DNA of 64,000 nt from NCBI RefSeq assembly GCF_030013595.1, contig NZ_CP122768.1. One strand, 5' to 3'. Source of the stretch: Escherichia coli (lineage in GTDB: Bacteria > Pseudomonadota > Gammaproteobacteria > Enterobacterales > Enterobacteriaceae). Below the pieces are notes generated by a model, which saw nothing but the letters and a program-made list of their open reading frames with translations, did not search any database and had not been told where the DNA came from. This document shows, piece by piece, positions 2,469 to 56,308 of the stretch. Made by a program: the position numbers and the translations under genes. Each line of letters opens with the position of its first letter. The stretch's first letter is position 1.

Positions 2469-3953
2469 ATGCGAAAAATAATTACTCATTTCAAAGTTGT
2501 TTTAACGTTACTTCTACCAGTAACCGTATCTGCCCAGCAGATACAGTGGCAATCCTGTATGGCCAGTCAATTCAACCACTGGTTTGGTGAGGAAAAACCG
2601 TCTCCTGACTTACTATGTGGTTATTTGTCTGTTCCATTAAAATATACAGACACAGGCGGAGATGCTTCTTATGAAAAAAAATCACAAGTCAAACTAGCGT
2701 TGACAAAATTGCCGGCAAAAAGCAAGCATAAAGGAAGTATCCTGATAATAAGTGGTGGTCCCGGGTTACCAGGCATAAATCCTTATATTAACTTTGACTG
2801 GCCAGTCACAAATCTTCGTGAGTCATGGGATATTATTGGATTTGATCCTCGAGGCGTCGGACAGTCCACTCCGACAATAAACTGCCGGCAATCAGATACA
2901 GAGACTCAGGAAAACATAACCGAAAAGCAACAAGTATTAAATAAAATTAATGCCTGTATCCATAATACCGGAGCCGAAGTCATTCGCCATATCGGCTCTA
3001 ACGAGGCTGTATACGATATTGATCGTATTAGGCAAGCCTTGGGGGATAAACAACTGACAGCCGTGGCGTATTCGTATGGAACTCAAATTGCAGCCTTATA
3101 TGCAGAACGTTTTCCCTACAACGTAAGATCTATCGTTCTTGATGGAGTCGTCGATATCGATGACCTGGAGGACAACTTCACATGGCAACTCAAACAGGCA
3201 CAGAGTTATCAGGAAACGTTTGATCGCTTTGCATCCTGGTGTGCGCGTACAAAAAGTTGCCCGCTTTCTTCAGACAGAGATAAGGCAATAACTCACTTCC
3301 ATGAGCTATTATCAAAATTACATCACAAACCTTTATTAGACAGTAAGGGAGAAAATATATCTTCAGGTGAACTCATATCATTAACAACAGACCTTCTGCT
3401 ATGGCGTTCATCATGGCCAACCCTTGCAACTGCCATACGCCAGTTCTCTCAGGGGATTGTCAGTAATGAAATTGAAACTGCGCTCAGTGCTCCGATAGCC
3501 TCAGAAGAGTCAAGCGATGCTTCGGGGGTAATCCTCTGTGTAGATCAGGGGGATGAGCAATTAACACCAGAAGAGCGAAAATCCCGAAAAGACGCTCTTG
3601 CGAATGCCTTCCCGGCTATTAACTTTGACAATGGACGTTCCGATTCACCTGATTTTTGTGAATTATGGCCAATACATAGCGACCTGAACAAAACTCGCCT
3701 GAAAAATACTGTTCTGCCCTCTGGTTTACTGTTTGTAGCACACAAATACGACCCAACAACGCCCTGGATTAATGCCCGTAAGATGGCAGAGAAATTTTCC
3801 AGCCCGTTACTAACAATAAATGGTGATGGGCATACATTAGCTCTCACCGGAGTTAATTTATGTGTAGATAAAGCAGTTGTACATCACCTGATCACTCCAC
3901 AAAAAATAGAAAATATATACTGCCCAGGAAATTCTGAAGCAGAAATACAATAA
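2469..3953 (+). CDS. Secreted alpha/beta-hydrolase fold peptidase (S33 / TAP-like)
   Basis: 494-aa ORF; N-terminal signal peptide; GGPG oxyanion-hole motif (ISGGPGLPG); Ser nucleophile motif AYSYG; occupies the position where K-12 DLP12 has appY. Confidence 0.7.
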   Translation: MRKIITHFKVVLTLLLPVTVSAQQIQWQSCMASQFNHWFGEEKPSPDLLCGYLSVPLKYTDTGGDASYEKKSQVKLALTKLPAKSKHKGSILIISGGPGLPGINPYINFDWPVTNLRESWDIIGFDPRGVGQSTPTINCRQSDTETQENITEKQQVLNKINACIHNTGAEVIRHIGSNEAVYDIDRIRQALGDKQLTAVAYSYGTQIAALYAERFPYNVRSIVLDGVVDIDDLEDNFTWQLKQAQSYQETFDRFASWCARTKSCPLSSDRDKAITHFHELLSKLHHKPLLDSKGENISSGELISLTTDLLLWRSSWPTLATAIRQFSQGIVSNEIETALSAPIASEESSDASGVILCVDQGDEQLTPEERKSRKDALANAFPAINFDNGRSDSPDFCELWPIHSDLNKTRLKNTVLPSGLLFVAHKYDPTTPWINARKMAEKFSSPLLTINGDGHTLALTGVNLCVDKAVVHHLITPQKIENIYCPGNSEAEIQ

Positions 3954-35398: not shown

Positions 35399-36208
35399 TC
35401 AATGAACGGTATCGAGCAGCTTTAACAGCTCAGGGAATCGGGATTCGAAGAAATGCGGCTGTGTCTCGCGCGGATTTGCGGGACTGGTGATGTTCTTGCC
35501 GAACATGCAACCTTTCGCTGTCAGCGACCAGAATTTTTTGATGTTGTTAATCGCTGTACGGCTGTATCGTTCGCGCTGCTCGACGATCCCCAGTTTCACC
35601 ATCTGGTGATATGCCTGATTAGCCGTCAGGCGTATACCATACTGTTTCAGCAGTGCACTCAGTGACAGTGTCGGGCGACTTGAGCCATCGTGTGCATCAG
35701 CAGGAGCATCAATGGCATAGCGCGGTGCCAGATTCGGTAAGCCAACAGCCTCCTGGAGTTTCTGACAGGCACCAAGCACTGAAGAGTTAGACAGGTTTAA
35801 CTCCCGGCGCATAAAGTCCAGCAGGATCACGCCAGCCTGCATCTTGTCAGCAGCCTGTCCGGATAATTTTTCCGGTGCGCTGGTTACCATATCGAAAGTA
35901 CGGATCACCTTCAGATGGAATGACGGGCTGATCCACATTGCATAGGCATACACCAGTTCCTTGCAGACATACGTTCCCCGTTCATTTCCCCCATGAATCA
36001 CACTCACCGGGTCAACACCCAAATTCTGGGTGTTGGTCAATTCATGAACAAGCTCAACAGTTTGTTGGCTGGAAAGAAACTTTCCCGGCTCCTTGGTTCT
36101 GGCATTTGCACCAGATGCTACTGCTGCGCGATGCAGATCGTTCAGGCTGTAACGCCCATAAGCATCACGACGAACTTCAATACCATCAATGACCATCAGA
36201 TTATTCAT
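35399..36208 (-). CDS. KilA-N domain protein (antirepressor-like)
   Basis: N-terminal KilA-N-like region (MNNLMVIDGIEVRRDAYGRYSLNDLHRAA). Confidence 0.7.
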   Translation of the reverse strand: MNNLMVIDGIEVRRDAYGRYSLNDLHRAAVASGANARTKEPGKFLSSQQTVELVHELTNTQNLGVDPVSVIHGGNERGTYVCKELVYAYAMWISPSFHLKVIRTFDMVTSAPEKLSGQAADKMQAGVILLDFMRRELNLSNSSVLGACQKLQEAVGLPNLAPRYAIDAPADAHDGSSRPTLSLSALLKQYGIRLTANQAYHQMVKLGIVEQRERYSRTAINNIKKFWSLTAKGCMFGKNITSPANPRETQPHFFESRFPELLKLLDTVH

Positions 36209-36227
36209 ACTTCGTTTCTCCTCTTGA

Positions 36228-36617
36228 TCAGGCGGCTGCACCCGCCGTTTTCTCGTACTTACTGATAGTGATCTCGACCTTCCCTTTCGGGATAACCGGT
36301 CCCCACTCCACCAGCATTCTTTTCACCTGACTGTCGTCTTCCCACACACCCGCATGGGTCAGGGCGTCAAACAGCGCCTTGTTATAGTTGTCCAGATCGC
36401 GGATCCGGTTATCCGGAGGAAACAACACGATCTCCACTGAAGCAGGTGCCGACGTTGGTTTCGGCAGACGACGTAACTGCTCAACTATTGCTGCGCACGC
36501 CGCGCTCTGGAATTTGCGCCCCGCTGCGCTTATCAGACTCTTACCAGCAAACGCCCCTTTGTTGGGGTGTCGCCAGTACGTGTTCACGCTGGGCGGGAAA
36601 GGCAAGATCAGCTTCAT
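36228..36617 (-). CDS. rusA: Holliday junction resolvase RusA
   Basis: 129 aa, RusA-like sequence with conserved acidic residues. Confidence 0.85.
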   Translation of the reverse strand: MKLILPFPPSVNTYWRHPNKGAFAGKSLISAAGRKFQSAACAAIVEQLRRLPKPTSAPASVEIVLFPPDNRIRDLDNYNKALFDALTHAGVWEDDSQVKRMLVEWGPVIPKGKVEITISKYEKTAGAAA

Positions 36618-36940
36618 ACTTTCAGGCCCCTCTCATGTAACCAGTGGGCTGCACGCAGCCTGGCGTTTTCCTCACCGGCAAGCAGTGCGCGGATAATCCC
36701 GACCGCCTCGCTGTCGTCGTCCTTCACCGCGGTATGAAGAGTTATCCCCCGGGCCACGCCACGCTTTATCGTGATGACGCCTTTTTTCTCCAGTGCGCGA
36801 AGATGCTCCACCGCTGCATTCACCGAACGGTATCCCAGCATGGTTGCCACCTCCTGATTGGTTGGCGGAAAGCCACGTTCTTGCTGGTAAGAAATCAGCA
36901 TATCCAGCACCTGCTGCTGGCATTGAGTTAACGTCGTCAT
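36614..36940 (-). CDS. LexA N-terminal DNA-binding-domain-like protein (no peptidase domain)
   Basis: 108 aa; resembles the LexA winged-HTH domain (QQQVLDMLISYQQERGFPPTNQEVATMLGYRSVNAAVEHLRALEKKGVI). Confidence 0.6.
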   Translation of the reverse strand: MTTLTQCQQQVLDMLISYQQERGFPPTNQEVATMLGYRSVNAAVEHLRALEKKGVITIKRGVARGITLHTAVKDDDSEAVGIIRALLAGEENARLRAAHWLHERGLKV

Positions 36941-37590
36941 GCCGCCATCTCCCTGACCAGTTTTTCCGCCTGCTGGCGAACCTGCGCCAGAAAGGCCTCA
37001 CCACATGCCTCAAGTTCATCGCGCCCGATGTAGCTGATTGCCGGTCCCTTCCAGGTCTTGTCGAAAACAGCAATAGCACCAGCGAAGAAAGCGCCTGTCG
37101 GCACCTGCTTCTCGTCCTTCGGGATAAACCAGGCTGGCAGTTCAAAACCAATACGCCCGCGAATAAAAGCAATATGGTCTGCATCTTCCGGCCACCACAC
37201 TTCGCTGGTGGCAGCTTTGATCAGGAAAACATAGCGCCCGCCTTTATCACGCATGGCACTGGCATGCTTCATGATGTAACGCATGCCGGTGATGTATTGC
37301 CCCTCATGCTGACTGGCGCGGCTGTACGGGGGATTACCAAAGGCAGCACCTTTAAGCTCCGCAAGACGTTCTGACCAGTCATGCGCCAGCGCGTTGTCTT
37401 CCGCAGTGTAATACGCGGCGCATTTGGCGTTATCACCATCAGTAAACAGATCCAGAACAAACGGGCCAAACAGGGTGTTAATTCCCCAGAAAATGTTGTC
37501 CGGCGTGCGCCACTGATCGCCCACTTCCTTCAGTTCATGGGCTGGTTTGTTCCGCAGCTCCACCAGCGCCTGGCAATATTTATTACTCAT
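36937..37590 (-). CDS. Phage N6-adenine DNA methyltransferase (Dam-like)
   Basis: 217 aa from MSNKYCQ; phage Dam-family features (NPPY motif); no adjacent restriction gene. Confidence 0.7.
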   Translation of the reverse strand: MSNKYCQALVELRNKPAHELKEVGDQWRTPDNIFWGINTLFGPFVLDLFTDGDNAKCAAYYTAEDNALAHDWSERLAELKGAAFGNPPYSRASQHEGQYITGMRYIMKHASAMRDKGGRYVFLIKAATSEVWWPEDADHIAFIRGRIGFELPAWFIPKDEKQVPTGAFFAGAIAVFDKTWKGPAISYIGRDELEACGEAFLAQVRQQAEKLVREMAA

Positions 37591-38078
37591 TAAGCCCCCA
37601 CGTAATTCCCTGACAGATACCACTCTTCACCCGATGCAGCGCGCTTGCTGCTTTTCCGTAAACACCGCTCACGACGCGCAAGAAAATTGTTTCGCTCTTG
37701 CTGGGAGTGGCTTTCACGGAATGCCGCCATCCACACCGTTGCAGCACGACGGTATAAGCCCCTGGACTCCAGTTCTTCCGCCTGGCGGGTCAGGCACAAA
37801 ATAACCCGGGGATCGTTAGTGCCGACATAGAAATTGCGCACAGGTCTGGATTCACGAACTGGTTGCGGTTCCGGCTCCTGCGGTATCTCAGTCAGCCGCG
37901 GGAAATGTCTGCGTGTATCCCCTTCACAACGGTGAGCCACACGCCCACTCTGACGTAACTTGCTTGCTGACTGCAGAACGCGCTGTCGTGAGTAACCTGC
38001 AAAAGCATCCGCAATGTCTCCGGAAGTACACCCCGGATGGGCTTCAATGAATTTCTGAACGTCATTCAAAAGACTCAT
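37590..38078 (-). CDS. Hypothetical nin-region protein
   Basis: 162 aa from ATG at 38078; directly follows the replication initiator; no Walker motif. Confidence 0.5.
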   Translation of the reverse strand: MSLLNDVQKFIEAHPGCTSGDIADAFAGYSRQRVLQSASKLRQSGRVAHRCEGDTRRHFPRLTEIPQEPEPQPVRESRPVRNFYVGTNDPRVILCLTRQAEELESRGLYRRAATVWMAAFRESHSQQERNNFLARRERCLRKSSKRAASGEEWYLSGNYVGA

Positions 38079-38080
38079 GA

Positions 38081-39022
38081 TCACCCCCTGAATCCTGCCG
38101 GGATCTGGCTGTAGTCCACGTTGTCGTAACTGGCTTTGAAGTACGGGTCTTCGCGTTTTTCGGTGTACGTGCTGACGGACGGCGATAAGCGCAGGGAAAG
38201 CTCATCCCATTTTTCCCGCAGCTTCGACGGGCTGAGCACGTTACGGCACCAGAACGGATCGCGACTGACGCGGCTGTACATCTCGCAGATTTGTTTATGA
38301 GTACGACCATCCTGCACACACATCAGGCGAATTTCGTTTGCCCAGGCTGTCCAGTTCGGTTCTTTGGGACGAACCACCTCGCCGTCACATTCGGCGGCAT
38401 GCTCGTACAGGGCGATGATTTTTTTCCAGAGCCACTGTGCGCAGGTCAAATCATCCTGCGTCCCCCACTGGCGCTTTTTAGGGCTGAATACAACCGCATC
38501 AGGATGGCGAGTTAAAAAATCCTGTTCAGCCGTCTGCGTGTCCGGTTGCGAAGAGTCCGGACGAGAAGGTTTTTTATCTGACGGATCATGTTTTGATTTT
38601 ACTGACGGATCCCCGCCAGATTCTGACGGGTGAAAACCCGCTTTTTTGCCAGATTTCGACGCATCAAATTTTGACGGGTCAGATTTTGATGCGTCAGATT
38701 TTGACGGGTCAGAATCTGACAGTTGAGAAAATGCCGCTGCCTGAAGCTTCGCAACGTTAAGCTGATAAACATTCGACGCATTGCGGTTACCCTGGCGACG
38801 CGCCTTACGCGTTAACCAGCCTTCTGCTTCCAGCCGTGCGATAGCCGTTCTGACGGTACTCATCCCCGCGCCAATCTGGCGGGCAATGGTTTCAATCGAT
38901 GGCCAGCACACACCTTCGTCATTACTGAAATCAGCCAGGCGGGCCATAATTGCCACGCTGGATAATTTCATGCCTGACGCTGCGCAACCATCCCATACAT
39001 AGCCGGTTAATTTAGTGCTCAT
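38081..39022 (-). CDS. Replication initiator protein (O-like)
   Basis: 313 aa; N-terminal HTH; repeat-encoded linker (DPSKSDASKSDPSKFDASKS) spanning the iterons. Confidence 0.75.
   Translation of the reverse strand: MSTKLTGYVWDGCAASGMKLSSVAIMARLADFSNDEGVCWPSIETIARQIGAGMSTVRTAIARLEAEGWLTRKARRQGNRNASNVYQLNVAKLQAAAFSQLSDSDPSKSDASKSDPSKFDASKSGKKAGFHPSESGGDPSVKSKHDPSDKKPSRPDSSQPDTQTAEQDFLTRHPDAVVFSPKKRQWGTQDDLTCAQWLWKKIIALYEHAAECDGEVVRPKEPNWTAWANEIRLMCVQDGRTHKQICEMYSRVSRDPFWCRNVLSPSKLREKWDELSLRLSPSVSTYTEKREDPYFKASYDNVDYSQIPAGFRG
38575..38725. repeat. Replication origin iterons inside the initiator gene
   Basis: Tandem and inverted copies of ATTTTGACGGGTCAGA / ATTTTGATGCGTCAGA. Confidence 0.7.
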
Positions 39023-39031
39023 GACCGACCT

Positions 39032-39370
39032 CTATTTCCCTGAATTTACGACGAAACTGTTCGAGCGGACTGAAGCACTCATGCTCATAGCCTTCGCGGA
39101 GGTAGATAACCCGTTGTGTTTCCGGTTCCCAACGAATGACTCTGACGGGCACTCCGTAGTGATCTTTGAACCAGCGGTTAACTTGTCGCAAAGGACTGTC
39201 TCCTTCTGCCGGTTGAAATCCCCCACAGCCCACTCTGCAAAGCTGTGGGTTACAATTTCCCTGTCACCTGGTACATTCACTGCATAGCAATATTCCACCT
39301 TCGCTTTTCCACCCGGTACAGGAAGCGCAATCAGTTGCGAGCGACGGTAGTGTGTTGTTAAACTGTTCAT
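39032..39370 (-). CDS. YmfM-like protein
   Basis: 112-aa ORF between the YmfL-like gene and the replication gene; the C-terminal half is low-complexity and overlaps an alternative ORF. Confidence 0.45.
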
Positions 39371-39936
39371 GCGTTAGTTTCTCCACAACCAGAAGCAATC
39401 GACGCCACGACGCCCGGAGCTGCACACTCGCGGGCGTCATTACTTTCTGAAATGCAAAAGATTTTGTAGACCAGTGCTGCATGCTCCTGCAGCTTCGAAA
39501 TTGAGAGATACAGCTCGTCGTTAATTGCTGTCTTCTCATGCGGTTCCACTACACCGTCTTCGATTGCTGAACGAATCTGTTTTGAATAACTGCCGATCTG
39601 TTCAATGACTTCCAGCAGACGCTGGTTAATATCGGCGTTGTCCACATCCTCGACGTCAGGAAGCGACACAAAGACGCCATTTGCAGACTGCGCCACAGCA
39701 TCAGCAATGAAGTGAGTGCCACCAGCACGCTGTAAAACCATTGCCCATCCCAGCGGGAAAATCTGATCGCCATCTGCACGAAGGCGGTTGAATAAAGCGT
39801 TTTCTGTTACATCGAGCCAGTCAGCCGCTTCAGCGTAACCACCCGGCAACGCCGCGATAGTTTTTCTGACAGCTTTCACGTACCACTCAGGCTGTTTTTC
39901 TATTTTCCAGTGATGCTTACCCACGATTAGCCTCAT
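39367..39936 (-). CDS. YmfL-like early regulatory protein (cII position)
   Basis: 189-aa ORF immediately downstream of cro. Confidence 0.55.
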
Positions 39937-39967
39937 CGTTCTGTGGTTAAAAATTGAAAGTGTTCTG

Positions 39968-40168
39968 CTAATCTTTCGGATAGATATCCGGTCTTAAGTC
40001 AGATTTCGTAATTGCACCTGACGTGCATTGCTCAAGTTTTTTAGCCAGCACAAAACTGGCTTTTTTATAGCCATTGAAAACCAGCCGTAAGTAGCCAGGA
40101 GTTGAGCCAACTTTTCCGGCCAACTCGCCCTGCTGTTCTTTGGTTAAAGAGTCCCAATACGCTTTCAT
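39968..40168 (-). CDS. cro: Cro-like repressor
   Basis: 66 aa from ATG at 40168, divergent from cI across the operator region. Confidence 0.7.
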   Translation of the reverse strand: MKAYWDSLTKEQQGELAGKVGSTPGYLRLVFNGYKKASFVLAKKLEQCTSGAITKSDLRPDIYPKD

Positions 40169-40171
40169 ACA

Positions 40172-40243
40172 ATATGTACCTCCGGTGTACATATTACATG
40201 ATTGAAATGAACCTTCAAGACACTTGTACCTTAACGGTACAAG
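40172..40243. promoter_or_regulatory. OR operator region (pR / pRM) with two palindromic operators
   Basis: atatgtac-N7-gtacatat at 40172-40194 and cttgtacc-ttaac-ggtacaag at 40223-40243, between the divergent cro and cI starts. Confidence 0.7.
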
Positions 40244-40258
40244 GGTTTTAATTTCGTT

Positions 40259-40933
40259 ATGAAAACAATCCATGACATCCGGCGGTCTAACGCCCGAAAA
40301 CTGAGAGATGGTGTTGGAGGGAATTCTTCCTTTGCCACTATGATTGATCGCGAGCCAACCCAGACCAGCAGGTTTATGGGAGATGGTGCTACTAAAAATA
40401 TCGGTGACAGCATGGCACGACACATCGAAAAATGTTTCGACCTGCCTGTCGGATGGCTCGATCAAGAACACCAGACAACGAACATCACAAAAAAACCTGA
40501 TGTTTCAATCACTAATAAACAAATCACATTAGTCCCTGTCATATCATGGGTACAGGCCGGAGCATGGAAAGAAGTTGGATATTCTGAGGTTGATTTGAGC
40601 ACAGCAGAAACGTATCCCTGCCCTGTACCCTGTGGGGAAATGACTTATATCTTGCGGGTGATAGGTGATTCAATGATTGATGAGTACCGCCCGGGAGACA
40701 TGATTTTTGTCGATCCTGAAGTACCTGCCTGCCACGGTGACGACGTTATTGCATTGATGCACGATACAGGTGAAACCACCTTCAAAAGGTTGATAGAAGA
40801 TGGGACACAGCGTTATCTCAAAGCGTTAAACCCAAACTGGCCTGAGCCTTACATTAAGATCAACGGTAATTGCTCTATAATTGGAACTGTGATTTTCTCA
40901 GGAAAACCAAGAAGATACAAAATCAAAGCCTAA
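40259..40933 (+). CDS. cI: CI-like repressor (LexA-like S24 peptidase family, e14 YmfK type)
   Basis: 224 aa; N-terminal HTH and C-terminal S24 autopeptidase domain (VIGDSM Ser motif). Confidence 0.85.
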   Translation: MKTIHDIRRSNARKLRDGVGGNSSFATMIDREPTQTSRFMGDGATKNIGDSMARHIEKCFDLPVGWLDQEHQTTNITKKPDVSITNKQITLVPVISWVQAGAWKEVGYSEVDLSTAETYPCPVPCGEMTYILRVIGDSMIDEYRPGDMIFVDPEVPACHGDDVIALMHDTGETTFKRLIEDGTQRYLKALNPNWPEPYIKINGNCSIIGTVIFSGKPRRYKIKA

Positions 40934-40945
40934 TCAATGTTTATG

Positions 40946-40969
40946 AACCTGCTTCGGCAGGTTTTTTTA
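40946..40969 (+). terminator. Intrinsic terminator after cI
   Basis: Hairpin aacctgc-ttcg-gcaggtt followed by ttttttt. Confidence 0.75.
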
Positions 40970-40972
40970 TAC

Positions 40973-41000
40973 TTGACAATGTACCCACGAGATACATAAT
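40973..41000 (+). promoter_or_regulatory. Candidate pL-like sigma70 promoter with operator-like TGTACCC repeats
   Basis: TTGACA, 16-nt spacer, CATAAT; two direct copies of AATGTACCCA overlapping it. Confidence 0.45.
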
Positions 41001-41083
41001 GTACCCAAGAGAAACAACAAACAGGCAGGACGCCCACGAAGTAGCCGCCTGGGGCATATGAAGTCCAGGATGATTCGTTAGCA

Positions 41084-41108
41084 ACAAAAAAGCGCCCTAC
41101 AGGACGCT
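41084..41108 (-). terminator. Intrinsic terminator downstream of the immunity-region gene
   Basis: Hairpin agcgccct-ac-aggacgct with a U-run on the minus strand. Confidence 0.5.
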
Positions 41109-41147
41109 TAGCTCTTTAACAATCTGGATATCCACAACAGTAGTAAT

Positions 41148-41639
41148 CTACAGATTGCCGTTAAGTTTTCTGGACAACTCCTCAATGGATGGAGGCGATA
41201 CGTAATCCGGATTTTTATTCATCAGAAACTTATTTTCACAGTGGAGGCACCTGCTTTTATGAAAAAGCTCATCTTCGCTAACCGGGAATGGTTGAAGTAT
41301 CGATACTATCTTTTGTCCAAAACATTTTGGGCAAAGATGCATGGTTATGCTGCCACCGTTCACGATTACCTCCTTCGAGTATACAAAAGTACCCGACTCA
41401 AGTTGGTTAAGGATATAGCCTTCCGTCTGAGCCTCAAAGTTTTCGAATTCTGCAATTTTAGCTTTGAGAGAAGCATTTATTTCTTGATAAGAGCCCACCA
41501 GTTCAACGAGAGACACGCATTCGCGCTGAATAGACGCAAGCTTTGAGTTCAGCTCACCAATAGCCGCATTTACTTCAGCTTGAGTTTTTGCCTCGTTCAT
41601 TAGTTTTGCAATCTGGGCTGTTTCACGAATAGCCGTCAT
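41148..41639 (-). CDS. Coiled-coil / zinc-ribbon protein of unknown function (rex-equivalent position)
   Basis: 163 aa from ATG at 41639; predicted N-terminal coiled coil; C-terminal CPKC..CLHC; opposite strand to cI and the early operon. Confidence 0.6.
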   Translation of the reverse strand: MTAIRETAQIAKLMNEAKTQAEVNAAIGELNSKLASIQRECVSLVELVGSYQEINASLKAKIAEFENFEAQTEGYILNQLESGTFVYSKEVIVNGGSITMHLCPKCFGQKIVSILQPFPVSEDELFHKSRCLHCENKFLMNKNPDYVSPPSIEELSRKLNGNL

Positions 41640-41677
41640 TGCTGCCGTTAATTCAGCGATCACATTGAATACTCTTA

Positions 41678-41723
41678 TTGTTGTTGGGGATATCCAGATT
41701 AACCGAATCCTTGTTGTTGGGGA
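41678..41723. repeat. Two 13-bp direct repeats TTGTTGTTGGGGA, 33 bp apart
   Basis: Exact copies at 41678-41690 and 41711-41723, 39-85 bp upstream of the start codon at 41639. Confidence 0.8.
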
Positions 41724-41950
41724 ATAACCAGGTCCACCTCGCCTGATGTGGCTAAAAGCAGGCACATAACAGCTAAGTATTTTCAACCAGAGAGAATCCT
41801 TAGCGTTGTGGTGAATGCGGCTCAGCGCACGCGGGTTAAGGTTGAGGCTGACAGTCGACCTTCTGTGGATACCCACCCGCCTGGTGTGCAACCTTCGCCA
41901 GGCACCGGGAGGCACCCGGCACCACAACTTTATGCTGTGTGTAGTCCTGG

Positions 41951-41996
41951 CGGTACCAGTTTGTACCCTTGCTTCCGGCTGGTACCGTCCTTTTTT
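41951..41996 (+). terminator. Intrinsic terminator in the early leader (tL-like)
   Basis: 9-bp stem cggtaccag / ctggtaccg with 19-nt loop, followed by tttttt; the stem contains operator-like GGTACC/TGTACC motifs. Confidence 0.55.
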
Positions 41997-42085
41997 GCAA
42001 AACAGAGAAGAGCATCACCGGACGACGGGCTCATAACCCAATCCATCCGGGCGGCTGCCACCGCAGGTGTTCTTCTCTGTTTTGT
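41997..42085 (+). ncRNA. Long stem-loop element in the early-operon 5' leader
   Basis: 13-bp perfect inverted repeat aaaacagagaaga / tcttctctgtttt (41999-42011, 42071-42083), extendable with G-U pairs, enclosing a 59-nt GC-rich interior; 49 nt upstream of the yfdP-like start. Confidence 0.4.
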
Positions 42086-42133
42086 GGAGAAACCAACCGA
42101 CCTTGCAGGGTCGATATGATGAGGAGCAGCAAA

Positions 42134-42496
42134 ATGGCTAGCGAACGCAGTACTGATGTGCAGGCATTTATCGGGGAGCTGGACGGCGGCGTATTTGAAA
42201 CCAAAATCGGCGCAGTTCTCAGTGAGGTCGCTTCCGGTGTGATGAACACGAAAACCAAAGGGAAGGTCTCACTCAATCTGGAAATCGAACCGTTTGATGA
42301 GAACCGTGTGAAAATCAAACACAAACTCTCATATGTTCGCCCAACTAACCGCGGGAAAATTTCCGAAGAAGACACCACCGAAACGCCGATGTATGTCAAT
42401 CGCGGTGGTCGCCTGACTATTCTGCAGGAAGACCAGGGACAATTACTGACTCTTGCCGGTGAACCTGACGGAAAACTCCGCGCAGCAGGTCGTTAA
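42134..42496 (+). CDS. YfdP-like early protein
   Basis: 120 aa from ATG at 42134 with AGGAG RBS; CPS-53 yfdP-like. Confidence 0.75.
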   Translation: MASERSTDVQAFIGELDGGVFETKIGAVLSEVASGVMNTKTKGKVSLNLEIEPFDENRVKIKHKLSYVRPTNRGKISEEDTTETPMYVNRGGRLTILQEDQGQLLTLAGEPDGKLRAAGR

Positions 42497-42561
42497 TATC
42501 GTTCGTAATAAACTGATTATTTATCTCATCACTGAATATCTTTATATAGTGAGGACTTATT

Positions 42562-43386
42562 ATGTCTCAGAACTTAGACGCAACCGCAATTAATCAAATC
42601 CATGCCCTTATTTCTGCTCAGAGTGTTAATGAAATTATCAGTAAGATTGGTGCCGATGCTGTGGCATTGCCTGAGAATTTCCGCATTCATGATCTGGAAA
42701 AATTTAATTTAAATCGCTTCCGTTTCCGTGGTGCACTTTCCACTGCCAGCATCGATGATTTTACCCGTTATTCTAAAGATCTTGCAGATGAAGGCACCCG
42801 CTGCTTTATCGATGCCGATAATATGCGTGCCGTCAGTGTGCTTAACCTGGGTACTATTGATGAGCCAGGTCACGCAGATAACACTGCCACTCTCAAACTG
42901 AAAAAGACAGCACCGTTCTCTGCTCTGTTGTCTGTTAACGGCGAGCGTAACTCCCAGAAGTCACTGGCAGAATGGATCGAAGACTGGGCCGACTACCTTG
43001 TGGGCTTTGATGCTAATGGTGACGCCATTCAAGCAACAAAAGCGGCTGCGGCAGTCCGTAAAATCACGATTGAAGCAAACCATACCGCTGATTTTGAAGA
43101 TAATGACTTCAGCGGCAAACGCTCCCTGATGGAGTCTGTCGAAGCGAAGACCAAAGACATTATGCCAGTGGCATTTGAATTTAAATGCGTTCCGTTTGAA
43201 GGTCTGAAAGAACGTCCGTTTAAATTACGCCTCAGCATTATCACTGGCGATCGTCCTGTACTGGTTCTGCGCATTATTCAGCTGGAAGCGGTGCAGGAAG
43301 AAATGGCTAACGAATTTCGTGATCTGCTTGTTGAGAAATTCAAAGACAGCAAAGTAGAAACCTTTATTGGTACTTTCACCGCCTGA
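42562..43386 (+). CDS. YfdQ-like protein (DUF2303)
   Basis: 274-aa ORF, CPS-53 yfdQ-like. Confidence 0.8.
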
Positions 43387-43513
43387 TTTCATTACTGCAA
43401 ATGCCCCTGCGGGGGCATTTATGGAAACGTAATTAACTCAATAATCACCGGATGGTGAGGGCTTCCTTTTACCAGAATTCAGCGCGGTGCAGTGCATATA
43501 CGTGGAGAACAAA

Positions 43514-44050
43514 ATGTCATTTATTAAAACTTTTTCCGGGAAGCATTTTTATTATGACAAGATAAATAAAGACGACATCGATATTAACGATATCGCGGTT
43601 TCCCTTTCAAATATCTGTCGCTTTGCCGGTCATCTTTCGCACTTCTACAGCGTCGCCCAACATGCGGTTCTTTGCAGCCAGCTGGTGCCGCAGGAATTTG
43701 CTTTTGAAGCGTTAATGCATGATGCAACAGAAGCGTATTGCCAGGACATTCCCGCACCACTGAAACGCCTTCTTCCTGACTATAAACGGATGGAAGAAAA
43801 AATAGACGCCGTAATCCGTGAGAAATACGGGTTACCCCCAGTTATGAGTACACCCGTGAAATATGCCGATCTCATCATGCTGGCAACCGAACGCCGCGAT
43901 CTCGGGCTTGATGATGGCTCTTTCTGGCCTGTACTGGAAGGCATCCCGGCAACAGAGATGTTCAACGTGATTCCACTGGCACCGGGTCATGCCTACGGGA
44001 TGTTTATGGAACGTTTTAACGATTTATCGGAGTTACGCAAATGCGCATGA
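43514..44050 (+). CDS. HD-domain phosphohydrolase (YfdR-like)
   Basis: 178 aa from MSFIKTF; HD motif (ALMHDATEAY). Confidence 0.8.
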   Translation: MSFIKTFSGKHFYYDKINKDDIDINDIAVSLSNICRFAGHLSHFYSVAQHAVLCSQLVPQEFAFEALMHDATEAYCQDIPAPLKRLLPDYKRMEEKIDAVIREKYGLPPVMSTPVKYADLIMLATERRDLGLDDGSFWPVLEGIPATEMFNVIPLAPGHAYGMFMERFNDLSELRKCA

Positions 44051-44403
44051 ATGTTTTCGAAATGGAAGGGTTTCTTCGCGGGAAATGTGTACCGCGAGAT
44101 CTGAAAGTGAACGAAACAAATGCTGAGTACCTGTTACGTAAATTCGACGCGCTTGAAGCTAAATGTGCGGCACTGGAAAACAAAATAATACCAGTGTCAG
44201 CTGAACTGCCACCAGCAAATGAAAGTGTTCTGTTATTTGATGCTAACGGAGAAGGCTGGCTGATTGGCTGGCGTTCTCTCTGGTACACCTGGGGACAAAA
44301 AGAAACCGGAGAATGGCAGTGGACATTTCAGGTCGGGGACCTTGAAAACGTCAATATCACTCACTGGGCAGTAATGCCAAAAGCACCGGAGGCTGGAGCA
44401 TAA
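44041..44403 (+). CDS. YfdS-like protein with C-terminal DUF551
   Basis: 120-aa ORF overlapping the yfdR-like stop. Confidence 0.7.
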   Translation: MRMNVFEMEGFLRGKCVPRDLKVNETNAEYLLRKFDALEAKCAALENKIIPVSAELPPANESVLLFDANGEGWLIGWRSLWYTWGQKETGEWQWTFQVGDLENVNITHWAVMPKAPEAGA

Positions 44404-44708
44404 TGACCACATTTACCAATAAAGAACTGATTAAAGAAATCAAAGAACGAATCAGCAGCCTAGAGGTTCGAGACGATATTGAGCGCCGTGCTTATGAAAT
44501 CGCACTCGTATCTCTGGAAGTAGAGCCAGATGAACGCGAAGCCTATGAATTATTCATGGAAAAGCGTTTCGGTGACTTAGTAGATCGTCGGAGAGTAAAA
44601 AACGGCGATAACGAATACATGGCATGGGATATGACTCTCGGTTGGATCGTCTGGCAGCAACGAGCTGGTATCCATTTTTCAACAATGACACAGCAAGAGG
44701 TGAAATAA
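44403..44708 (+). CDS. YfdT-like protein
   Basis: 101-aa ORF. Confidence 0.7.
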   Translation: MTTFTNKELIKEIKERISSLEVRDDIERRAYEIALVSLEVEPDEREAYELFMEKRFGDLVDRRRVKNGDNEYMAWDMTLGWIVWQQRAGIHFSTMTQQEVK

Positions 44709-45079
44709 TGGAGCCATACAGCCTCACACTCGATGAGGCCTGTCAGTTTCTTAAGATATCCAGACCAACCGCCACCAACTGGATACGAACAGGCCGCCTA
44801 CAGGCAACACGTAAAGATCCAACCAAGCCAAAATCTCCTTACCTCACAACACGGCAAGCTTGCATTGCGGCGCTTCAGTCTCCGCTGCATACTGTCCAGG
44901 TGAGCGCGGGTGATGGCATAACAGAGGAAAGAAAATGTCACTCTTCCGCAGAAATGAAATATGGTATGCCTCGTATTCGCTCCCGGGCGGGAAACGAATT
45001 AAGGAATCTCTTGGCACAAAGGACAAGCGGCAAGCTCAGGAGTTGCACGACAAGCGAAAAGCAGAACTCTGGCGAGTAG
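44708..45079 (+). CDS. xis: Putative excisionase (Xis)
   Basis: ATG at 44708 overlapping the upstream stop (TAATG); N-terminal HTH-like region ([31 protein letters not shown]); overlaps the int start out of frame; the 3' end is uncertain. Confidence 0.5.
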
Positions 45080-46098
45080 AAAAGCTAGGGGATTTACCTG
45101 ATGTCACTTTTGAAGAGGCCTGCCTAAGATGGCTTGAGGAAAAAGCTGATAAAAAATCTCTCGATTCAGATAAAAGCCGGATTGAGTTCTGGCTTGAACA
45201 TTTTGAGGGTATAAGGCTTAAAGATATCTCGGAGGCAAAGATTTACTCTGCTGTAAGCAGAATGCATAACAGAAAGACGAAAGAAATATGGAAACAGAAA
45301 GTTCAGGCCGCCATCAGGAAAGGTAAAGAACCGCCTGTTTATGAACCAAAGCCAGTATCAACTCAGACAAAGGCAAAGCATCTTGCCATGATAAAGGCCA
45401 TTCTCCGTGCTGCAGAACGCGACTGGAAGTGGCTGGAAAAAGCGCCTGTCATCAAGATACCAGCGGTCAGAAACAAGCGAGTCAGATGGCTGGAAAAGGA
45501 GGAAGCAAAACGCCTTATTGATGAGTGCCCCGAACCACTGAAATCTGTCGTCAAGTTTGCGCTGGCAACTGGTCTGAGAAAGTCGAACATCATAAATCTG
45601 GAATGGCAACAAATCGACATGCAGCGACGAGTTGCCTGGGTGAATCCAGAAGAGAGCAAATCAAACCGCGCCATTGGTGTGGCGCTGAACGATACCGCCT
45701 GTAAAGTGTTGCGTGATCAAATAGGCAAGCATCACAAATGGGTGTTTGTACATACCAAGGCGGCTAAGCGAGCAGATGGAACATCAACGCCTGCGGTCAG
45801 GAAGATGCGCATCGACAGCAAGACATCATGGCTATCAGCTTGTCGTCGTGCAGGAATTGAAGATTTCCGTTTCCATGACCTCAGACACACCTGGGCAAGC
45901 TGGCTGATCCAGTCAGGCGTCCCATTATCTGTGCTTCAGGAAATGGGCGGATGGGAGTCCATAGAAATGGTTCGTAGGTATGCTCACCTTGCGCCTAATC
46001 ATTTGACAGAGCATGCAAGGAAAATAGACGACATTTTTGGTGATAATGTCCCAAATATGTCCCACTGTGGAATTATGGAGGATATAAAGAAGGCGTAA
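44935..46098 (+). CDS. int: Tyrosine integrase (DLP12 IntD type)
   Basis: 387 aa; C-terminal catalytic region with HDLRHT..Y; ends 16 bp from argU. Confidence 0.9.
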
Positions 46099-46113
46099 CT
46101 GATTGAATTGTAA

Positions 46114-46190
46114 TGGCGCGCCCTGCAGGATTCGAACCTGCGGCCCACGACTTAGAAGGTCGTTGCTCTATCCAACTGAGCTAAGGGCGC
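46114..46190 (-). tRNA. argU: tRNA-Arg (UCU) argU
   Basis: Reverse complement gcgcccttagctcagttggatagagcaacgaccttctaagtcgtgggccgcaggttcgaatcctgcagggcgcgcca is a cloverleaf with anticodon TCT and terminal CCA. Confidence 0.9.
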
Positions 46191-46432
46191 GTTGATACCG
46201 CAATGCGGTGTAATCGCGTGAATTATACGGTCAACCCTTGCTGAGTCAATGGCTTTTGATCTGGTTGCTGAACAAGTGAACGACCGCGTCTGATTTTCTG
46301 ATTTATTTCGCTATAGCGGCAAACAAACGTACATCGCTGCGCGTCTGAATCAAGAAAACTCGTATTTTCATGTATCAAAGTACAATTTCCCGCCCTAACG
46401 GAAAATTGTCCGATCCAATGAGACTGGTAACT

Positions 46433-47065
46433 ATGAAACCAACGTCGGTGATCATTATGGATACTCATCCTATCATCAGAATGTCTATTGAAGTTCTGTT
46501 GCAAAAAAACAATGAATTGCAAATTGTCCTGAAAACGGATGATTATCGCATAACCATCGATTATCTCCGAACCCGTCCTGTTGATTTAATCATTATGGAT
46601 ATAGACTTGCCCGGAACAGACGGTTTTACCTTCCTGAAAAGGATCAAACAAATCCAGAGCACAGTGAAAGTATTATTTTTATCATCGAAATCAGAATGCT
46701 TTTATGCTGGCAGAGCGATACAAGCTGGTGCTAACGGTTTTGTCAGTAAATGCAATGATCAGAATGATATTTTTCACGCCGTTCAGATGATCCTCTCCGG
46801 ATACACTTTTTTTCCCAGCGAAACGCTCAACTATATAAAAAGCAATAAATGCAGTACGAATAGTTCAACGGTCACGGTGCTATCTAATCGTGAAGTGACC
46901 ATATTACGTTATCTGGTTAGCGGATTATCCAATAAAGAAATTGCCGATAAGTTATTACTTAGCAATAAAACAGTTAGTGCGCATAAATCTAATATTTATG
47001 GCAAGCTAGGTTTGCATTCAATTGTAGAGCTTATCGACTACGCCAAATTATATGAATTAATATAA
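46433..47065 (+). CDS. fimZ: Response regulator FimZ (LuxR-family)
   Basis: 210 aa from MKPTSVIIMD; receiver domain plus LuxR HTH. Confidence 0.85.
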   Translation: MKPTSVIIMDTHPIIRMSIEVLLQKNNELQIVLKTDDYRITIDYLRTRPVDLIIMDIDLPGTDGFTFLKRIKQIQSTVKVLFLSSKSECFYAGRAIQAGANGFVSKCNDQNDIFHAVQMILSGYTFFPSETLNYIKSNKCSTNSSTVTVLSNREVTILRYLVSGLSNKEIADKLLLSNKTVSAHKSNIYGKLGLHSIVELIDYAKLYELI

Positions 47066-54922: not shown

Positions 54923-56308
54923 TTACTTACGACGCCAGGTGGTCCCTTGCGGGCCATCTTCCAGCACGATCCCCATCTCGTTAAGACGGTCACGCGCCGC
55001 ATCTGCCGCCGCCCAGTCTTTCGCTTTACGGGCATCCAGACGCTGTTGAATTAACGCTTCAATCTCAGCCACTTCGCTGTCGTCTGCCTGCGCGCCGCTT
55101 TGCAGGAACGCTTCCGGTTCTTGCTCCAGCAGGCCCAATACGGCGGAAAGTTTACGCAGATGAGACGCCATCGCGTTTGCCGCTGCCATATCTTCTGCTT
55201 TCAGACGGTTTACTTCACGCGCCATATCAAACAGTACGGAATAGGCTTCCGGGGTGTTGAAATCGTCGTCCATCGCTTCAATAAAGCGCGCTTCAAACGC
55301 TTCGCCACCCGCAGGCGCAACGGTTTTATCTGTGCCGCGCAGCGCAGTGTAGAGACGCTCCAGCGCCGCACGCGCCTGCTTCAGGTTCTCTTCGCTGTAG
55401 TTCAGCTGGCTGCGATAGTGGCCCGACATCAGGAAATAACGCACGGTTTCCGCGTCGTAGTATTTCAGCACATCGCGCACGGTAAAGAAGTTACCCAGCG
55501 ATTTGGACATCTTCTCGCGGTCAACCATCACCATTCCGGAATGCATCCAGTAGTTCACATACTGACCATCATGGGCACAGGTGGACTGAGCGATTTCGTT
55601 TTCGTGGTGTGGGAACATCAGGTCAGAACCGCCGCCGTGGATATCAAAGTGGTTACCCAGCTGCTTGCAGTTCATTGCCGAACATTCAATGTGCCAGCCT
55701 GGACGGCCCGGGCCCCACGGCGACGGCCAGCTCGGTTCGCCCTCTTTCGACATCTTCCACAGAACGAAATCCATCGGGTTGCGTTTGTCGTCGACCACGT
55801 CAACGCGCGCGCCTGCCTGCAGCTGGTCGAGATCCTGACGCGACAGCACGCCATATGTCGGATCGGTCGGTACGTCAAACATCACGTCGCCGTTGTCCGC
55901 CACATAAGCGTGACCTTTGGCGATCAGTTGTTCAGTGAGTTCAATAATTTCTGCGATATGGTGCGTCGCGCGCGGCTCCATATCCGGGCGCAGAATGTTC
56001 AAAGCATCAAAATCTTTGTGCATTTCGGCGATCATGCGATCCACCAGCGCCACAAAGCTTTCGCCATTTTCATTGGCGCGTTTGATGATTTTGTCGTCGA
56101 TATCAGTAATGTTGCGCACATACTTCAGCTTATAGCCGAGGAAACGCAGATAGCGCGCAACCACGTCAAAGGCAACAAAGGTACGCCCGTGACCGATATG
56201 ACAGAGATCGTAAACGGTGATTCCACACACGTACATGCCGACTTCCCCGGCGTGAATAGGCTTAAATTCCTCTTTTTGGCGTGTCAGAGTATTGAAGATT
56301 TTTAGCAT
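54923..56308 (-). CDS. cysS: Cysteine--tRNA ligase CysS
   Basis: 461 aa with HIGH and KMSKS motifs. Confidence 0.95.

Follow-up and report, generated by a model that had tools for sequence, protein, structure and literature searches.

Organization of the immunity region

The locus lies in a prophage within the window, by which we mean the whole 64-kb stretch of Escherichia coli DNA that was analysed. Over the pL region this prophage is 99.4% identical to Escherichia phage PhiR49_1, and its immunity region is shared with the Shigella phages SfV and SfIV. Leftward from OR the minus strand carries cro, followed by a cII-like gene (Phage_CP76) and an O-like replication gene, while the plus strand carries, rightward, cI, the pL region, genes of the YfdP-like, YfdQ-like (DUF2303), HD-domain, DUF551 and YfdT-like types, xis and int, and then tRNA-Arg(UCU) (Table 1). 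The layout resembles that of lambda, and pL is therefore expected on the plus strand directly 3' of cI. The CI protein contains a Peptidase_S24 self-cleavage domain; its RefSeq label is 'ymfK: LexA family protein', and phrog_4, to which it belongs, is a transcriptional repressor family. OR (window 40171-40258) comprises two strong operators spaced 50 bp apart, plus a third site (40208-24) that is degenerate and abuts the one on the pRM side. The cI gene is apparently leaderless, with a -10 element TTTAAT at 40247-52, 7 nt before the ATG at 40259. The tRNA-Arg(UCU) (window 46114-46260) adjoins int and is likely the attachment site. A P1-type C4 antisense RNA and isrK lie within an 'immunity region' gene in SfV (1429-1617), Ayreon (1429-1617) and ST64B (240-428); neither was found in the 11 kb of the window that were scanned (36000-47000).

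Table 1. Coordinates (window numbering), strand and basis of the features of the pL region and its surroundings
Feature	Coordinates	Strand	Basis or description
cro-like gene, first of the early-right operon	39968..40168	-	ORF; Cro annotation in PhiR49_1; weak HTH_3/YdaS matches
OR operator TGTACCTCCGGTGTACA	40175..40191		TGTACC-TTAAC-GGTACA; over the start region of the putative pR; kept in relatives
Weak third OR site TGAACCTTCAAGACACT	40208..40224		Degenerate here; TGAACC-N5-GGTACT in diverged relatives
OR operator TGTACCTTAACGGTACA	40225..40241		TGTACC-TCCGG-TGTACA; perfect dyad over the -35/spacer of the putative pRM
cI repressor, 224 aa, YmfK/CohE type	40259..40933	+	Pfam PF00717 Peptidase_S24, E 1.5e-26; phrog_4
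cI intrinsic terminator	40945..40971	+	8-bp stem 40945-64, then T run; annotated in the SfV and Ayreon records
pL promoter (predicted)	40973..41000	+	TTGACA 40973-40978, 16-nt spacer, CATAAT 40995-41000; predicted start near A41007
Operator OL-a TGTACCCACGAGATACA	40980..40996		TGTACC-CACGA-GATACA; fills the promoter spacer
Operator OL-b TGTACCCAAGAGAAACA	41000..41016		TGTACC-CAAGA-GAAACA; last -10 base through ~+10
Structured leader RNA	41009..41081	+	Covariation, RNAalifold, covariance model
Hairpin	41090..41109		Ends the minus-strand gene as a good intrinsic terminator on that strand
boxA GCTCTTTAACAA	41111..41122	+	Perfect match to GYTCTTTAANA; only match in 64 kb
Inverted repeat, left arm AATCTGGATATCCACAACAGTAGTAA	41121..41146		26 nt, 85% complementary; directly after boxA
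Opposite-strand cargo gene	41148..41639	-	163 aa; phrog_1244, E 2e-58
Inverted repeat, right arm TTATTGTTGTTGGGGATATCCAGATT	41675..41700		~530-550 nt downstream of the left arm; encloses the minus-strand gene
STnc100/PasD-like structured RNA	41775..41998	+	Rfam RF02076 full-length match, 40.3 bits, E 4.7e-6
Long branched hairpin	41998..42084	+	Closing stem ~26 bp; 3' of the terminator at 41951-96 and 5' of the first early gene
First early-left gene, YfdP-like	42116..42496	+	ORF; PhiR49_1, Pfam and PHROG comparisons

A predicted early-left promoter overlapped by operators

The first-pass annotation had placed a promoter of the form TTGACA-16 nt-CATAAT on the plus strand directly after the cI terminator, and this is indeed found there. 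TTGACA begins 8 nt after the terminator stem, the promoter is co-oriented with cI, and the two hexamers agree with the consensus at 11 of 12 positions. It is directed rightward, toward the yfdP-like genes, xis and int. Taken alone, the promoter match is not significant and lies within chance, with two 11/12 sigma-70 matches seen in 64 kb and 1.05 expected. The second of these is the tRNA-Arg promoter (TTGACT, 16 nt, TATAAT, start 46249, minus strand). A promoter is also annotated at the equivalent place in the GenBank record of Ayreon, where no basis is stated, and loci of other immunity types have strong promoters of their own at an equal distance from the downstream leader, with different internal repeats.

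The window contains exactly two copies of AATGTACCCA, at 40978-87 and 40998-41007, which open a 19-20-bp tandem repeat (40978-96 and 40998-41016) whose units are 89% identical. The likeness of these two copies to half-sites of the OR operators, noted in the first-pass annotation, holds; they are actually the left halves of full 17-bp dyad operators, OL-a and OL-b, with centres 20 bp apart. The dyad common to the OL and OR operators is TGTACC-N5-GRTACA. We searched both strands of the 64 kb with the pattern TGTACC-N8-ACA, which was found only at 40175-91 and 40225-41 in OR and at 40980-96 and 41000-16 at pL. These four places yield five matches because 40225-41 is palindromic and is counted on both strands; 0.32 matches were expected, and 0 of 100 shuffles reached the observed count. 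Unlike the promoter match, the operator pattern is significant. A perfect left half-site with no right half is also present within cI (TGTACCCTGTGGGGAAA, 40624-40640); its conservation is that of coding sequence only, and it is unlikely to serve as an operator.

To place these sites in a wider context we used 120 viral contigs, collected with a 17-mer search pattern by the leader that they have in common downstream, which together with the window and loci already in hand gave a comparison set of 123 loci with enough flank. The operator type was present at the equivalent promoter in 18 of these, at fixed positions relative to the promoter. OL-a in the 18 loci reads TGTACC-N5-G(G/A)TACA, its 5 central base pairs vary freely, and several versions are perfect dyads (e.g. 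TGTACCCCAAAGGTACA); in OL-b, TGTACC and the right half GAAACA are kept and the centre varies. Half-sites retained around a free centre are what recognition by a dimeric repressor would be expected to produce. Across phages the operator type tracks repressor specificity. The N-terminal 92 residues of CI are at least 80% identical to those of the window CI in 17 of the 18 loci with this operator type, whereas the window-type N-domain is found in none of the 105 loci without it. The eighteenth locus gave no N-domain match, but it did match in the C-terminal domain.

That the promoter is a likely repressor-controlled pL, as had been suggested, is supported by the lambdoid geometry, by operators of the OR type and by the co-occurrence of these operators with the CI N-domain. 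On this comparative evidence we regard the region as probably the CI-repressed early-left promoter pL of a lambdoid prophage of e14/SfV immunity. On this reading, pL and the OL operators are defined for an immunity type widespread in E. coli and Shigella and also represented by the K-12 prophage e14. The promoter itself is an ordinary lambdoid pL/OL, and it is the leader RNA and its companions that raise the interest of the locus above the routine.

A conserved structured RNA at the start of the predicted transcript

Between pL and the terminator at 41951-96 lie a conserved leader RNA and a boxA, neither of which figured in the first-pass annotation. The leader fold spans 64 nt (41016-79), starting at about +10 of the predicted transcript. 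An outer stem P1 (41016-21 with 41074-79) closes the fold and a hairpin P3 is formed by 41048-52 with 41065-69; the core of ~23 nt (41023-47) is near-invariant. Among 62 distinct sequences, which come from phages with different repressors, 93.8% of the cells in P1 and P3 are paired, compared with at most 50% when the partners are slid, and the stems contain 198 double-sided changes, compared with 66.6 ± 5.9 in shuffles. P1, for example, takes the forms AGCGAA/UUCGCU, CCACC/GGUGG and GUCAUC/GAUGAC. RNAalifold recovered both stems. A covariance model scored 87 bits at the window leader and found a single copy per phage. Among the collected loci the core AGGCAGGACGCCCACGAAGUAGC does not vary, but 17 of its bases were preset by the search pattern.

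Carriers of the leader include ST64B, SfII, mEp237, ZF40, Yersinia YeP1-3, SPN3UB, SEN34 and phages of Klebsiella and Citrobacter. In every case the leader follows a pL-type promoter at a short distance; in most related loci with a good promoter match it starts 12-15 nt after the -10 element, each locus having its own operators, and in 59 of the 120 loci an ORF for an S24-type repressor ends 75-225 nt upstream of the leader. A search of 36-47 kb against Rfam 15 and a relaxed search of 40990-41135 gave no match for the leader, nor did a full-text search of one literature library for the core sequence. The covariance model detected no second copy on the pR side and no match in HK022, HK639 or Ayreon. 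A 15-bit match at 55051-55103, considered as a second copy, was treated as noise, and a 22-nt similarity of the leader to 39428-49 lies within the cII-like coding sequence and in the range of chance repeats. Wobble-pair counts were uninformative on which strand folds, and we infer from the promoter context that it is the plus strand.

The segment between the leader and the early-left genes

From the predicted start at ~41007 to the first early-gene start codon at 42116, the plus strand has no gene for ~1.1 kb. The first-pass annotation had anticipated that the pL transcript would run antisense through the gene at 41148-41639 and meet a terminator before the early genes, and both points are borne out: the minus-strand ORF is real and matches phrog_1244, and the terminator at 41951-41996 consists of an 11-bp stem followed by U6. 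A scan of the plus strand from 41000 to 42600 detected no further sigma-70-like promoter ahead of the early genes, and the intrinsic terminator stands in the path from pL.

The hairpin at 41090-41109 lies directly 5' of boxA and is weaker on the plus strand, where it has a C-A mismatch and no U run. The boxA core GCTCTTTAACA conforms to GYTCTTTAANA, the gamma-proteobacterial boxA consensus (PMC5725501). The module of hairpin plus boxA occurs at a fixed offset after the leader in 20 of the 123 loci, with differing flanks and cargo. The arms of the inverted repeat that begins directly after boxA have a duplex energy of -31.3 kcal/mol, compared with -17.7 ± 2.4 for shuffled arms, and ~11 of 15 distinct loci have equivalent long-range pairs, in part of different sequence, around differing cargo. 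Such brackets around different cargo were seen in loci L014, L028, L066, L069, L089, L100 and L122, with energies well beyond those of shuffled controls. The bracketing repeat could be a long-range RNA stem, perhaps an RNase III site, or could mark the recombination boundaries of a swappable cargo cassette. A second variant of the right arm is present in the window at 41708-41733, with no matching left arm.

The cargo protein of the window combines a coiled coil with a CxxC...CxxC zinc-ribbon-like tail; it gave no Pfam family above threshold and no PADLOC match, and two cargo proteins of other loci likewise gave no Pfam family above threshold. Upstream of the gene no sigma-70-like promoter was found at ≥8/12. 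The slot after the pL leader is occupied by minus-strand genes of at least three unrelated families (in the window and in L014, L066, L069, L089, L100, L107 and L122), among them the coiled-coil and zinc-ribbon type of the window, a protein of ~157 aa with hydrophobic, possibly membrane-spanning stretches, and one of 144 aa.

The terminator at 41951-96 forms the 3' end of an RNA that matches the STnc100 model over its full length, at a score of 40.3 bits that is below the gathering score of 47. Given the full-length match, the E value of 4.7e-6 and the synteny with ST64B, it is therefore likely a divergent relative of STnc100 and not a certified member of the family. SfV and the Salmonella phage ST64B have an STnc100-like RNA at the same place, and in 31 of 105 loci the leader is followed on the same strand, after 437-1029 nt, by the core of such an RNA. 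The whole of 41775-42115 is highly structured (fold z-score -5.2). ST64B keeps the hairpin at 41998-42084, with apparent compensatory changes, and a further small hairpin directly precedes the yfdP start codon. The STnc100-like RNA has no evident promoter of its own, though relatives are reported as sRNAs in lysogens. STnc100 is a family of prophage RNAs akin to PasD, and relatives of the two are reported to be abundant Hfq-bound prophage sRNAs (bioRxiv 10.64898/2026.05.13.724894). In a strict census of terminators after the leader, plus-strand terminators were found in only 15 of 96 loci, and minus-strand terminators within 1.5 kb in 40 of 96; the first count does not support a universal need to override intrinsic terminators.

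The same arrangement in the E. coli K-12 prophage e14

The ymfK-ymfJ region of e14 contains a near-identical OR, cI (ymfK/cohE), terminator, promoter, pair of operators and leader, with the predicted start at ~NC_000913.3:1202185 on the complement strand. Unlike the window, e14 has no boxA, cargo cassette or STnc100-like RNA; its leader runs directly into ymfJ, and no terminator lies between the two. The ymfK mRNA of e14 is leaderless in K-12 (PMC4681348), which fits the TTTAAT -10 element seven bases before the cI ATG in the window. The YmfT iModulon groups ymfJ, ymfH, xisE and intE with ymfT, ymfL, ymfM, recN and sulA (PMC12133099), and YmfK has been listed as an SOS-sensitive repressor (PMC8249747); together these give indirect support for one cleavable repressor acting over both arms. 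Our literature search found no paper that maps the e14 pL promoter or its operators. A YmfJ-like protein is encoded by the first gene after the leader in e14 (L131 3777-4190), in Yersinia phage YeP1 (L008) and in one other contig. These proteins have the N-terminal motif LLLEDAKRLQQ.EPNA in common and are absent from the window, and a YmfJ-like protein is a possible recurrent partner of the leader.

Comparison with lambda, HK022, rrn and STnc100

As in lambda pL/OL, the window has a predicted strong sigma-70 promoter that follows cI, is co-oriented with it and is overlapped by 17-bp dyads with the half-sites of OR. In lambda this promoter directs transcription of the early-left operon toward xis and int, and self-cleavage of the repressor releases it; the former is predicted for the window, and the latter would apply there as well. 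Unlike lambda, the window has two operators 20 bp apart and not three, and it lacks an N gene, boxB and, between cI and pL, rexAB; it has a distinct structured leader RNA, as well as an opposite-strand cargo gene and a terminator-ended structured RNA before the first early gene. Of the components of a lambda-type nut site, a boxA was found but a boxB hairpin with an N protein was not, and the window boxA has the rrn-type consensus, whereas that of lambda is weaker. The hairpin of the window stands 5' of boxA, as in rrn, whereas the nut hairpin stands 3' of it. For the absence of N in this phage group we rely on the published report that the N gene is missing from SfII, SfV and SfIV (PMC3851460); when N-terminal arginines were crudely counted over the downstream ORFs, only unlikely candidates for N emerged.

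HK022 and HK639 are, like the prophage of the window, N-less phages with a folded RNA directly downstream of pL. The putL RNA of HK022 is a fold of ~65-70 nt that begins within 10 nt of the pL start and acts without protein factors (PMC9378689). The window leader has no sequence similarity to putL or putR of HK022 or to putL of HK639. It consists of an outer closing stem round a conserved core with one hairpin, in contrast to the two tandem stem-loops of put, and unlike put it has no copy downstream of pR. Antitermination by put acts in cis and depends on the zinc-binding domain of the beta-prime subunit of RNA polymerase.

A hairpin followed by a consensus boxA is also found in the rrn leader, and there too, in the leader-trailer helix, the sequence after boxA pairs with a far downstream partner and encloses the segment between them (rrn architecture as described in PMC10250234). 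The window differs from rrn in that it encloses an antisense phage cargo gene and not rRNA, and no boxC was recognised. The STnc100-like RNA of the window agrees with STnc100/PasD over the full length of the model, including the terminal terminator hairpin; it departs from them in scoring below the gathering threshold and in lying inside the pL transcription unit.

Candidate functions of the leader and of the pL transcript

SfV, ST64B and e14-like phages lack N, and their early-left transcripts must survive long stretches that are untranslated and antisense. The leader RNA, the boxA and the paired boundaries round the cargo gene are concrete elements with which this can be approached, and the leader may explain how transcription passes the downstream obstacles. 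We envisage that in a lysogen CI dimers on OL-a and OL-b would keep RNA polymerase off pL, and that on DNA damage self-cleavage of CI would free pL and pR together. The transcript would then start near 41007 and carry the leader RNA followed by the hairpin and boxA. The leader would make the elongation complex resistant to termination, against Rho over ~1.1 kb of untranslated antisense RNA, and might act on the intrinsic terminator at 41951-96 too, and polymerase would go on to reach the yfdP-like genes, xis and int, in a manner comparable to HK022 put or to a nut site without N.

Antitermination, with boxA where it is present, is thus a possible function of the leader that we propose tentatively, by analogy, because of the parallel with HK022 putL, the lack of N, the long untranslated and antisense path and a core that phages of different host genera have in common, suggestive of a partner provided by the host, for example RNA polymerase or Nus factors. 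Against this function stand the absence of likeness to put and of a pR-side copy, the presence of boxA in only 20 of 123 loci, the scarcity of plus-strand terminators (15 of 96 loci, and none between leader and ymfJ in e14) and the fact that the invariance of the core was in part imposed by the 17-mer with which loci were collected. It is more doubtful still that the leader represents a new type of processive antiterminator RNA that acts in cis, bears no sequence relationship to put and serves N-less lambdoid pL operons. Were that so, the class would cover SfV, SfII, ST64B, mEp237, ZF40 and K-12 e14, the leader would in some phages work with an rrn-type boxA, and polymerase would cross opposite-strand cargo cassettes and STnc100-type terminator-ended RNAs.

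The leader may equally be no antiterminator and serve as a 5' stabiliser, a translational control element or a binding site for a phage or host protein, which we consider quite plausible though short of probable. Its position at the extreme 5' end, the missing pR-side copy, the conserved AUGA at the 3' junction, which adjoins the first gene in e14, and the rarity of strict terminators downstream all agree with such roles. However, the core is near-invariant across phages of Escherichia, Salmonella, Yersinia, Pectobacterium and Klebsiella, which points to one conserved host partner and not to a plain protective hairpin, and the genes downstream differ between loci, so that gene-specific translational control is unlikely. 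It would be possible to regard pL as mainly the source of a short non-coding RNA, comprising the leader up to the hairpin at 41090-41109 or extending to 41951-96, given that the leader forms a compact, conserved structure right at the 5' terminus of the transcript, that the terminator at 41951-96 is a good one and that the STnc100/PasD relatives cited above are reported to be abundant Hfq-bound sRNAs. We think this improbable: the hairpin at 41090-41109 has a mismatch and lacks a U run on the plus strand, the leader of e14 is a plain 5' UTR of ymfJ, the early-left genes have no other detectable promoter, and it is in lysogens, in which a promoter under CI repression should be silent, that the sRNAs were seen.

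A main role in transcriptional interference, with head-on shut-off of the cargo gene upon induction, would be compatible with the reading of the promoter as pL, and in many loci the leader is directly followed by a minus-strand ORF with its own terminator (minus-strand terminators within 1.5 kb in 40 of 96). Yet promoter, operators and leader are constant where the cargo varies or, as in e14 and SfV, is missing, so that interference cannot be the conserved function, and we give this explanation very little weight. That the promoter is nothing but a chance sigma-70-like match without function, of which about one at 11/12 is expected per 64 kb, is scarcely credible, given where it lies, that operators overlap it, that it is conserved in the 18 loci of the same immunity and that loci of other immunity types have counterparts equally far from the leader.

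Other leaders in phages of the same immunity

Ayreon (3600-3700), Stx2c phages, cdtI and 2H10 have the same cI, pL and operators and a different leader. The Ayreon-type leader includes a 10-bp hairpin together with the 9-mer CATGCGTCG, a sequence shared with putL of HK022 and of HK639, and it may be an alternative, possibly put-like, leader module. In SfII-type loci a hairpin related to the Ayreon-type one lies between pL and the leader motif.
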